Part shown: piece by piece, positions 1,577 through 3,264 of the stretch | Layout: every line of letters begins with the position of its first letter | How positions within the stretch are numbered: the stretch's first letter is position 1 | The notes under the pieces: model-generated | The model's database searches: none | What the model was told of the DNA's origin: nothing | Seen by the model: only the letters and a program-made list of their open reading frames with translations | Position numbers and translations under genes: made by a program | Virus record (IMG/VR): IMGVR_UViG_2531839178_000018 | From: a virus | Taxonomy: Duplodnaviria; Heunggongvirae; Uroviricota; Caudoviricetes | Length of the DNA stretch: 3,264 nucleotides | Strand: one strand, 5' to 3'

Positions 1577-1663
1577 TTATCCCCAGCGGAAAAGTGAATA
1601 CAGAATAAATGCCACCGCTATTGCAACTCCTACTGCGGTGAATGCTTCAGGCCAATTCATCAT
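1577..1663 (-). CDS. Small hydrophobic peptide, 28 aa, predicted single transmembrane helix (not in the supplied ORF track)
   Basis: Hand translation: MMNWPEAFTAVGVAIAVAFILYSLFRWG. ATG at 1663-1661 overlaps the TGA stop of the 209-aa ORF (ATGA overlap); a second ATG follows immediately. GGAGG (complement of 1668-1672) lies 4-7 nt upstream. Its TAA (1579-1577) is 4 nt before the ATG of the 80-aa ORF. It fills the apparent gap 1573-1659. Confidence 0.42.
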   Translation of the reverse strand: MMNWPEAFTAVGVAIAVAFILYSLFRWG

Positions 1664-2289
1664 TTCACCTCCACGCCGATCCCGGCAATAACACAATCCC
1701 GTTTGATAGCTTCTTTCACCCAGCGTTTATAGGTTTCCGGATGGAATTTTGCGCTTTTTCCAGTACCGCTCCAGAATGCCTTTGATGTGATATCGGGCAG
1801 GGTGATGGTCAGACCTTTCTTCCTGATGTCTCCAGAACTTTTGCAAAAAGTTAATGCGACGCGTAGTTCTTTAACGCACGCATAGTTTTCTGCTTTCTCT
1901 GGATCGCCGGTACGGTGTTCAGCTTCTTGTCTGCACCATTTGATGACTTTCTCAGCGGCTGCGTGGAGACGCTGACGTTGCCGGTCGTATGTGTCGACCA
2001 GCCCAAATGCATGATCCTTTGCTTTGCTTAATTCAGCGACGAGGCATTCGGAATCAATCAGATTATTTTCCGCAGCGGACAGTGCATGTTTCAGTCGCTC
2101 GATTTCTTGAGCCATGTAGTAACCGGTTTTGCTCCAGGTATCTACATCATCGCCACTCATATCCGGTTCCATCGTCGCCATCAGAACGGCGTCGTGATAG
2201 TCCAAGCTACCGCAGGTGATTGCAACGGCGTAGGAGTCACTATTTTCTCGTTTATGGATAAGTACAACTGGGTTTTTGATCTTGCTCAT
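1660..2289 (-). CDS. Hypothetical prophage accessory protein, 209 aa; function not assignable from sequence
   Basis: Longest intact ORF in the window. ATG at 2289 is preceded by GAGGTG with a ~5-nt spacer. Acidic N-terminal region (MEPDMSGDDVDTW), a central region that looks helical/charged (EIERLKHALSAAENNL...RQRQRLHAAAEKVIKWCRQEAEH), and a basic C-terminus (KFHPETYKRWVKEAIKR). No catalytic motif recognised. Confidence 0.75.
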   Translation of the reverse strand: MSKIKNPVVLIHKRENSDSYAVAITCGSLDYHDAVLMATMEPDMSGDDVDTWSKTGYYMAQEIERLKHALSAAENNLIDSECLVAELSKAKDHAFGLVDTYDRQRQRLHAAAEKVIKWCRQEAEHRTGDPEKAENYACVKELRVALTFCKSSGDIRKKGLTITLPDITSKAFWSGTGKSAKFHPETYKRWVKEAIKRDCVIAGIGVEVK

Positions 2290-2297
2290 CCCGCACC

Positions 2298-2393
2298 TCA
2301 GTAATTCATTAAAAATTTATATTCAATCAGCGCACCGAAAACGACGGACGCCAGCAGCAGACCAAACAGCATGGACAGGAGGAATGACTTCAT
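2298..2393 (-). CDS. Small hydrophobic peptide, 31 aa, predicted single transmembrane helix (not in the supplied ORF track)
   Basis: Hand translation: MKSFLLSMLFGLLLASVVFGALIEYKFLMNY. ATG at 2393-2391 overlaps the TGA stop of the 74-aa ORF (ATGA overlap). GGGAGG (complement of 2401-2406) lies 7 nt upstream. Its TGA (2300-2298) is embedded in the SD of the 209-aa ORF. Confidence 0.45.
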   Translation of the reverse strand: MKSFLLSMLFGLLLASVVFGALIEYKFLMNY

Positions 2394-2823: not shown

Positions 2824-2859
2824 TGAAGTGGCACACTGAATTTGGCCACCTGAACAGAG
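2824..2859 (+). repeat. IS911 left terminal inverted repeat (IRL, about 36 bp)
   Basis: Begins with the TGAAGTGG terminus characteristic of IS911/IS3-family ends. The 36-bp length is from recalled literature; the partner IRR is not in the window. Confidence 0.65.
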
Positions 2860-2895
2860 GTGATATGCTCACCTCAGAACAACACAGGTGCTCCA

Positions 2896-3158
2896 ATGAA
2901 AAAAAGAAATTTTAGCGCAGAGTTTAAACGCGAATCCGCTCAACTGGTTGTTGACCAGAAATACACGGTGGCAGATGCCGCCAAAGCTATGGATGTTGGC
3001 CTTTCCACAATGACAAGATGGGTCAAACAACTGCGTGATGAGCGTCAGGGCAAAACACCAAAAGCCTCTCCGATAACACCAGAACAAATCGAAATACGTA
3101 AGCTGAGGAAAAAGCTACAACGCATTGAAATGGAGAATGAAATATTAAAAAAGGCTAC
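2896..3158 (+). CDS. insN: IS911 OrfA (transposase N-terminal/regulatory protein), about 87 of ~100 codons; 3' end disrupted by IS30, reading frame continues into IS30 sequence
   Basis: ATG at 2896 preceded by AGGTG with a 5-nt spacer. Helix-turn-helix region and leucine-zipper-like heptads ([20 protein letters not shown]) typical of IS3-family OrfA. The track's start at 2860 is a GTG extension with no SD. After ...ILKKAT the translation ([18 protein letters not shown]...) is IS30-derived, not IS911. Confidence 0.8.
3147..3153 (+). promoter_or_regulatory. IS911 programmed -1 ribosomal frameshift heptamer A-AAA-AAG
   Basis: AAAAAAG at 3147-3153 in the orfA frame, at the position where IS911 OrfAB is produced by -1 frameshifting (established for IS911). 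The downstream stimulatory region and orfB have been removed by the IS30 insertion 5 bp downstream. Confidence 0.7.
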
Positions 3159-3184
3159 TGTAGATTCAATTGGTCAACGCAACA
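3159..3184 (+). repeat. IS30 left terminal inverted repeat (about 26 bp)
   Basis: Starts at the abrupt break in IS911 homology. The 26-bp length is from recalled literature. Confidence 0.65.
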
Positions 3185-3220
3185 GTTATGTGAAAACATG
3201 GGGTCGCGGAGGTTTTTTGA

Positions 3221-3264
3221 ATGAGACGAACATTTACAGCAGAGGAAAAAGCCTCTGTTTTTGA
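3221..3264 (+). CDS. insI: IS30 transposase, first 14 codons (3' end beyond the window)
   Basis: ATG at 3221 preceded by GGAGG (3207-3211) with a 9-nt spacer. Translation [14 protein letters not shown] runs to the window end without a stop. Confidence 0.8.

Follow-up and report, generated by a model that had tools for sequence, protein, structure and literature searches.

The 3,264-nucleotide (nt) stretch of phage DNA analyzed here (IMG/VR record IMGVR_UViG_2531839178_000018; the window below means this stretch at its full length) carries on its minus strand, at positions 1577-2393, an open reading frame (ORF) for a 209-amino-acid (aa) protein at 1660-2289, preceded by an ORF for a 31-aa hydrophobic peptide at 2298-2393 and followed by an ORF for a second such peptide of 27 or 28 aa at 1577-1663. 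These three genes are probably three mosaic cassettes, namely a protein built in the manner of lambda Ea22 and members of two membrane-peptide families. An initial annotation of this DNA had instead proposed that the soluble protein and its two peptides form a single exclusion, abortive-infection or toxin module, and this proposal did not survive, as the parts occur separately in syntenic loci and none matches a family in PADLOC. The annotation did place all three ORFs correctly. Its description of ATGA coupling on both sides of the 209-aa gene was right for the downstream peptide, whose ORF overlaps the 209-aa gene stop (ATGA, 1660-1663), whereas the ATGA of the upstream peptide (2390-2393) is formed by its start and the stop of a 74-aa gene, and 8 nt separate the 31-aa ORF from the start of the 209-aa gene.

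The distribution of the three parts was compared across homologous loci. The full trio was confined to one lineage with identities of at least 87% (relatives including loci L001, L002, L003, L050 and L109). Contigs of Salmonella, Escherichia coli (a 153-aa form of the protein), Klebsiella and Citrobacter had the gene order 74-aa, 70-aa, homologue, 103-109-aa, 48-aa, xis and int, with the 70-aa and 103-109-aa genes coding for soluble products where the window has its peptides, and in Citrobacter youngae, a metagenome-assembled genome of C. freundii and Pantoea stewartii the homologue was preceded by a gene ending in ...ETAK and followed by a larger soluble gene. A scan for hydrophobic ORFs, the same that finds both peptides in the window, found none in six of these syntenic loci. 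No hydrophobic small ORF lay within -400/+600 nt of the homologue at L007-L009, L143, L145, L147 and L149, at which the trio was absent, and it was partial at L012 of E. coli M8, where the downstream peptide is present, the upstream 31-aa ORF is absent and the 74-aa gene is joined straight to the homologue. Conservation of the three genes as a block in other prophages was the check that the initial annotation had suggested for its module, and absence of the small ORFs from otherwise syntenic loci was what it had said would count against it. Since just this absence was found, the module is contradicted in the terms in which it was put forward. The three parts are, in our judgment, rather likely to be independently shuffled cassettes, and the idea that they form one machine was unsupported.

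The 209-aa gene is under purifying selection, with a ratio of nonsynonymous to synonymous differences (pN/pS) of ~0.19 against the Citrobacter orthologue that was similar in all three parts of the protein: an N-terminal domain (residues ~1-66), a predicted long central helix or coiled coil (~50-151) and a portable C-terminal domain (~158-209). Its ribosome-binding site, GAGG (2296-2299, minus strand), lies 6 nt before the ATG and overlaps the TGA stop of the 31-aa ORF (2298-2300). The protein matched phrog_492, a family without an assigned function, over residues 1-159 (E = 1.4e-17), with the C-terminal domain falling outside the profile, and relatives carrying the N-terminal domain alone also matched phrog_492. 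The earlier statement that the protein has no characterized family was borne out, as there was no match in Pfam at E ≤ 0.1, none in NCBIfam or PADLOC, and no sequence match among PDB chains with either the single query or a 54-sequence profile; a Pfam search with the 54 homologues returned coiled-coil noise matches only.

A word-index search identified 665 relatives in Enterobacteriaceae, with lengths of 150-336 aa. Their alignment revealed a near-invariant N-terminal domain of ~65 residues and ~55 C-terminal residues common to them, and between these a variable middle part that is kept, lost or enlarged and gives rise to the range of lengths. The profile search, which covered 1.84 billion representative proteins and returned 256 hits, was more informative about how the domains are combined: ~10 of the 256 clusters were full-length, more than 100 shared the C-terminal domain only (profile positions ~143-202), always at their own C-terminus and behind unrelated sequence (68-360 aa), and ~40 shared only the N-terminal domain (profile positions 1-80). 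In other proteins the N-terminal domain is accompanied by DUF551 or Ead_Ea22 parts (the match to P0261 had 52% identity over 83 residues), in one protein the C-terminal domain is accompanied by a dATP/dGTP pyrophosphohydrolase domain (75% identity), and the 102-aa Fels-1 protein STM0895 terminates in the same C-terminal domain. Such a pattern of sharing identifies the 209-aa protein as a domain-swapped mosaic, and its C-terminal domain as a common portable module without a Pfam or PHROG family. The protein is not an orphan, being one combination in an Ea22/DUF551-style network of lambdoid early proteins with swapped domains.

Three further observations concern this protein. A gene sharing its N-terminal domain was present in the 108-kb phage Cyrano within a cluster of Ead/Ea22/Eae-like genes. 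The idea that its C-terminal domain, with a strand LTITLPD followed by helices, is a ribbon-helix-helix DNA binder was unsupported by any Pfam model. Codon 103 (1981-1983) specifies Arg in the window and Trp in 41 of 43 homologues (W103R, in the motif DTYDWQRQRL), which may be a sign of relaxed selection in a remnant.

The closest parallel for the protein is Ea22 of phage lambda, in which a short N-terminal segment is followed by a central coiled coil and then by a C-terminal domain; Ea22 is tetrameric with a dimeric C-terminal domain, and is pro-lysogenic (PMC10834534). The ea22 gene is mosaic among Shiga toxin (Stx) phages, DUF551 being one of its portable C-terminal domains, and the C-terminal domains of Ea22 are acidic (PMC10834534). 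The 209-aa gene likewise lies in an early-left operon, between recombination/regulatory genes and xis-int, and its product likewise has a short N-terminal domain, a long helix resembling a coiled coil (in a low-confidence model) and a small exchangeable C-terminal domain. Moreover, its N-terminal domain is fused elsewhere to PF13935 and DUF551 parts. The C-terminal domain itself differs from those of Ea22 in that it is another, undescribed module which is net basic in this copy, as judged by residue count. PF13935 (Ead/Ea22-like; IPR025153) was absent from the 209-aa protein at E ≤ 0.1 and, at E ≤ 1, from the 25 families listed for the 54 homologues. By analogy, we class the 209-aa protein as an Ea22-style modular accessory protein that stands outside the Ead_Ea22 family.

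A second parallel is to DUF551 (PF04448), since the C-terminal domain of the 209-aa protein is also a module of ~55-65 aa that ends many unrelated early-operon proteins. The motifs of the two differ, reading LTITLPD...FHPETYKRWVKEAIER...GIGVEVK in the 209-aa protein versus ...GWISCSE...HWMPLPEPPQEV in DUF551, and the DUF551 profile matched neither the 209-aa protein nor its homologues; DUF551 occurred only in other proteins with the same N-terminal domain. Proteins ending in DUF551 are also the commonest upstream neighbors of the 27-aa peptide gene. Among the other systems considered, PADLOC-DB 2.0 contained no family that matched at E ≤ 0.1 any of seven proteins (the 209-aa protein, the peptides and their neighbors), no named K-12 equivalent was found at the left end of the Rac prophage, and the similarity of the neighboring DUF4222 protein to RcbA was unconvincing.

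The AlphaFold2 model of the 209-aa protein with its 54 homologues began with two strands and a helix, continued with a helix of 78 residues and ended in a strand-helix-strand C-terminal part, at a poor predicted local distance difference test (pLDDT) score of 62 and hence low confidence; the 153-aa short form with 42 homologues gave a pLDDT of 48. The initial annotation had recommended remote-homology searches and structure prediction with Foldseek, and these produced no trustworthy match: searching BFVD and PDB with the model of pLDDT 62 gave nothing below E = 0.1, long-helix proteins only, and these matches were set aside as untrustworthy.

The two small ORFs stood out in a scan of the minus strand for ORFs of 18-60 aa with a 17-residue Kyte-Doolittle mean above 2.0, which found exactly two hydrophobic small ORFs (the 31-aa and the 27/28-aa ORF) versus 0.13 +/- 0.36 in 200 shuffles. 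The 17-residue means of the two peptides were 2.28 and 2.41. In all copies a strong Shine-Dalgarno (SD) sequence lies 5-9 nt upstream, and peptide length is kept, the sole length variants being in-frame. The two peptides represent unrelated families, each conserved and each with its own ribosome-binding site, and the earlier reading of the small ORFs as membrane-peptide genes was made credible by the same SD sequences and lengths together with frame-specific patterns of substitution. A non-coding RNA identity for the blocks was rejected, as a search of Rfam with the window and the small-ORF blocks had no hits and the predicted RNA fold of both blocks was not more stable than that of shuffles on either strand (z from -0.6 to +1.8).

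The downstream peptide, M(M)NWPEAFTAVGVAIAVAFILYSLFRWG, is predicted to be a single-pass hydrophobic peptide. The initial annotation had given it 28 aa, and while that ORF (1577-1663, minus strand) exists, the start conserved across the family is the second ATG (1660-1658), which leads to a product of 27 aa (MNWPEAF...); GGAGG lies 7 nt ahead of this start, and the overlap reads TGATG. This ribosome-binding site (1668-1672) lies where the 209-aa gene encodes its final V-E-V-K and marks the upstream edge of a conserved mobile block (1576-1672), with homology ending at 1672 beside unrelated upstream genes. A blastn search detected the block in 1468 of the 5426 complete E. coli genomes (~27%), and in almost all of them it was the sole part of the query that matched. 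The family was also found in 80 phage records, among them those of BP-4795, VT2-Sakai, Min27 and further Stx phages. We collected 78 copies, with 37 distinct nucleotide sequences, and all of these had GGAGGTG or GGAGGA 5-9 nt before the ATG. Their products were of 24-28 aa, with length variants that differ by whole codons, and the WPEA and RWG ends as well as a G-x-A-x-A-x-A pattern were kept across the family. The pN/pS was 0.45 in frame versus 0.68 and 2.14 out of frame, with some classes near synonymous saturation (pS ~0.75), and single-step changes to polar residues numbered 2 of 26 in frame versus 28 of 65 and 25 of 66 in the other frames.

The neighbors of the 27-aa ORF were diverse. At least five types of upstream gene were identified (those ending in DUF551, in ...ISVEDILR or in the C-terminal domain of the 209-aa protein, one for a coiled-coil protein, and others), and downstream there were DUF4222 genes, other genes or hok/mok loci. 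In three loci (L011, 2501-2586; L138 and L139, 1501-1595) the 27-aa ORF is followed directly by a hokD or mokW-hokW type I toxin locus in place of DUF4222, an arrangement of certain prophages that also occurs in Stx1/Stx2 phages (Stx1 converting phage, Min27). More than 100 copies of the block were on E. coli plasmids of ~95-100 kb, beside DUF551 genes, and these plasmids are probably phage-plasmids. The 27-aa ORF was not annotated in the RefSeq or phage records examined, and a few GenBank submissions label it as a hypothetical or bacteriophage protein. An apparent fusion of the peptide to DUF551 was a clustering artefact, as the 121-aa and 185-aa cluster members do not contain the peptide sequence.

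The upstream peptide, MKSFLLSMLFGLLLASVVFGALIEYKFLMNY, encoded at 2298-2393 on the minus strand, is likewise predicted to be single-pass and has a tail (...VFGALIEYKFL...) that is conserved in its family. Its ribosome-binding site, GGAGG (2401-2405), lies 7 nt before the ATG within the end of the 74-aa gene and is kept in L140 and related loci. Among viral contigs the family was represented by 73 copies that encode 26 distinct peptides, almost always 31 aa long, and the exact 31-aa sequence was present on 854 contigs. It was common in viral contigs and rarer than the downstream family in complete E. coli genomes (18 of 5426). At least four upstream and at least three downstream genes were observed as its contexts, and in every one of these an SD sequence precedes the ORF and the stop codon merges into the ribosome-binding site of the next gene. 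Just 1 of 38 single-step changes introduced a polar residue, versus an expectation of 22% (p = 0.001), and the other frames were unbiased. Phage phi467 annotates this ORF (CUW01254.1), and in IMGVR_UViG_2751185945_000008 (L220) a deletion has produced an in-frame fusion in which MKIQHQDYGAV, the N-terminus of the 74-aa protein, runs into the second half of the 31-aa peptide (...AVVFGALIEYKFLIGF). 

E. coli and its prophages encode several kinds of small hydrophobic protein, including the type I toxins Hok, Ibs and Ldr and the regulatory peptides AcrZ, KdpF and MgtS. Both peptides of the window resemble these in having 27-31 residues and one predicted transmembrane helix and in being of a kind that annotation often misses, and they differ from them in their translational coupling inside a phage operon. 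Neither peptide had a match in Pfam, NCBIfam, PHROGs or PADLOC, and their sequences were unmentioned in full-text literature searches and in the supplements of a ribosome-profiling paper on small genes of enterohaemorrhagic E. coli.

Taken together, we favor a reading in which the 209-aa protein would have a small N-terminal alpha/beta domain, a long helix that is probably a coiled coil through which the protein oligomerizes, and the portable C-terminal domain. The helix might act as a stalk from which the exchangeable end domains meet partners of host or phage origin soon after infection or induction, and by analogy with Ea22 the protein may be a non-essential modulator that tunes development, either the lysis-lysogeny decision or host physiology. 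Each peptide gene would have its SD sequence inside the last codons of whichever gene is upstream and would hand ribosomes to whichever gene is downstream, so that the peptides would be translated along with the rest of the operon, and their genes, each a self-contained block of ~100 nt, would pass from phage to phage. The peptides would be expected to insert in the inner membrane, and in the 27-aa family the conserved G-x-A-x-A-x-A face suggests that the helix packs against another, either of its own kind or of a membrane protein of the host.

Several points weigh against this reading. The samples of both small-ORF families were gathered with exact DNA seeds, which favored conserved copies, and we infer the translation of all three genes from the sequence. 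The polar-avoidance test for the 27/28-aa family was borderline (p = 0.05), and the pN/pS of the 31-aa family was 0.76 in frame versus 0.68 in frame +1, so that its frames were not separated. BLASTP of the 209-aa protein against Ea22 gave no alignment and hhalign against Ea22 relatives gave a probability of 0.2% (the Ea22 alignment being small, with 5 sequences), results by which direct homology to Ea22 was rejected; an Ea22-like role is accordingly an analogy drawn from architecture and position. Models of such poor quality do no more than suggest the coiled coil and the folds of the domains.

Three other explanations were considered. That the three genes form one functional unit, in which the peptides anchor or gate the 209-aa protein for superinfection exclusion, abortive infection or a toxin-like purpose, would account for their tight packing and translational coupling in the window and in the five relatives named above, and the locus is a known hotspot for accessory genes. 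We nevertheless regard it as very improbable, and the distribution brings it close to refuted: the trio belongs to a single narrow lineage, homologues in five other lineages lack both peptides and that of M8 lacks the 31-aa ORF, the 27-aa family mostly follows proteins of the DUF551 type and others, the 31-aa family precedes three different genes, and PADLOC offered no match. Also improbable is a toxin reading, in which either peptide or both would damage membranes in the manner of type I toxins, holins or Kil and serve host killing or post-segregational maintenance of the prophage. Their size and hydrophobicity are typical of type I toxins and the 27-aa ORF can lie directly upstream of hokD or mokW-hokW, but a consensus-based, non-exhaustive scan of 1577-2393 found no promoter-like site of their own on the minus strand or antisense to it, there was neither an antisense-RNA family match nor a stable RNA fold, and translational coupling in an operon is unlike known type I toxin loci. 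Furthermore, promoter-less remnants and ~27% of E. coli genomes have kept the ORF intact, with no sign of counter-selection, and it matches no toxin model in PADLOC, Pfam or NCBIfam.

The third explanation is that the small ORFs are conserved linker DNA at mosaic joints, kept for the ribosome-binding sites and coupling signals that it supplies to neighboring genes and for short recombination homologies between phages, with any peptide as a by-product. Both blocks do start and stop exactly at the SD and stop signals that neighbors have in common, homology breaks sharply at their edges beside unrelated genes as at recombination joints, the pN/pS of the 31-aa family does not tell frames apart, and the downstream ORF is unannotated in the RefSeq records examined. 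A linker would, however, have no need of ~27 or 31 sense codons, and syntenic loci achieve coupling without such a spacer. Lengths change only in multiples of three, hydrophobicity and the end motifs (WPEA...RWG and GALIEYKFL) hold across classes near synonymous saturation, and polar changes are avoided in the ORF frame only. Because whole-codon length changes and substitutions that preserve hydrophobicity favor a protein, we consider the linker explanation unlikely. The reading of the three genes as mosaic cassettes with membrane-peptide products remains the one that we prefer. A further extension of it is offered tentatively, as a conjecture that we think has a rather low chance of being correct: the 27-aa peptide, and less widely the 31-aa peptide, could be an overlooked phage membrane protein, encoded by about one in four E. 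coli genomes as well as by Stx phages, that is expressed early from pL and acts on a host membrane target (in blocking superinfection, in transport or membrane potential, or in prophage induction), with the C-terminal domain of ~55 aa being an undescribed portable targeting domain like DUF551.

The mosaic nature of the 209-aa protein explains a problem in its current annotation. In RefSeq, the Prokaryotic Genome Annotation Pipeline annotated only the last 52 codons of an intact 209-codon ORF, as a partial pseudogene ("hypothetical protein, incomplete, missing N-terminus"), apparently because only the portable C-terminal module had reference support. The pseudogene label was found in at least four complete E. 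coli genomes (LH50-c, KC-Dl-1, M8 and A41), and the mislabelled loci that match 1660-2289 of the window are L001 7557-8186, L002 6484-7113, L012 3861-4019 and L142 1785-1943. The 27-aa family, for its part, is in more than a quarter of complete E. coli genomes and in the Stx phages listed above, and is unannotated by RefSeq in the records examined. If the peptides are functional, they would be easy targets for genetics of the kind done on the exo-xis region of Stx phages. Overall, the protein represents a known kind of mosaic accessory protein of phages, in a new combination of domains, and no new kind of system is indicated; the practical yield is in annotation and in where to look next, with both the large protein and the peptides being of modest interest.

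The surrounding genes place the window at the integrase end of an early-left (pL-type) operon of lambdoid kind, as its tail, and annotated relatives, in which these genes sit between the repressor region and xis-int, bore out the earlier identification of this stretch as a variable accessory region. All native genes of the window are on the minus strand. Downstream of the three genes are a gene for an 80-aa DUF4222 protein (1330-1572; Pfam PF13973, E = 1.4e-15), which starts 4 nt past the stop of the 27/28-aa ORF (TAA-AGGA-ATG), a 48-aa gene (phrog_3871), a DUF1233 excisionase gene (918-1172) and an integrase gene (84-884) that lacks its 3' part. Upstream are the 74-aa gene (2390-2614; phrog_1001, function unassigned), which is kept as the upstream neighbor at nearly all homologous loci, and the 3' part of a 112-aa gene (phrog_37628) that is cut at ~2823.

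The initial annotation had called this a native operon, which is correct in that these are minus-strand phage genes; the operon is, however, an insertion sequence (IS)-truncated, promoter-less remnant. The end of an IS630-type (DDE_3) element (1-101) interrupts the integrase gene, and an IS3-family (IS911-like) element on the plus strand (2824-3264) truncates the 112-aa gene and separates the operon from its upstream promoter region. Consistent with these boundaries, similarity to intact prophages ends at ~102, inside int, and at ~2823, IS3-type genes (HTH_Tnp_1, rve) are present in the sister loci L133-L137, IS911 is annotated in a matching sequence, and a DDE_3 transposase adjoins in L136 and L137. 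Two loci of assembly GCA_002968135.1 are 99.9% identical to the window, and there the remnant adjoins mlrA amid many IS elements. No promoter-like site was found on the minus strand by the same type of scan as above. With IS elements now in place of the upstream promoter region, the cluster in this genome is probably silent or reached by read-through only.

A simple scan identified nine terminator-like hairpins on both strands versus 2.9 +/- 1.6 in shuffles; one of them lies on the minus strand within the 74-aa gene (2535-2517), and none lies at gene ends in the 1577-2393 region. In intact relatives (L001 8850-11321 and L002 7777-9365), genes for an ORF6N-domain protein and for a toxin-like protein of the ParE family lie upstream of the 112-aa gene, and L001 also has an SPFH-domain gene; the ORF6N, ParE-like and SPFH genes are all gone from the window. 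Given the IS3/IS911-like insertion, a 93-aa ORF at 2615-2896 is a chimera that runs into the end of the IS element, and the IS arrangements at these same sites differ between the sister genomes (L133-L137).

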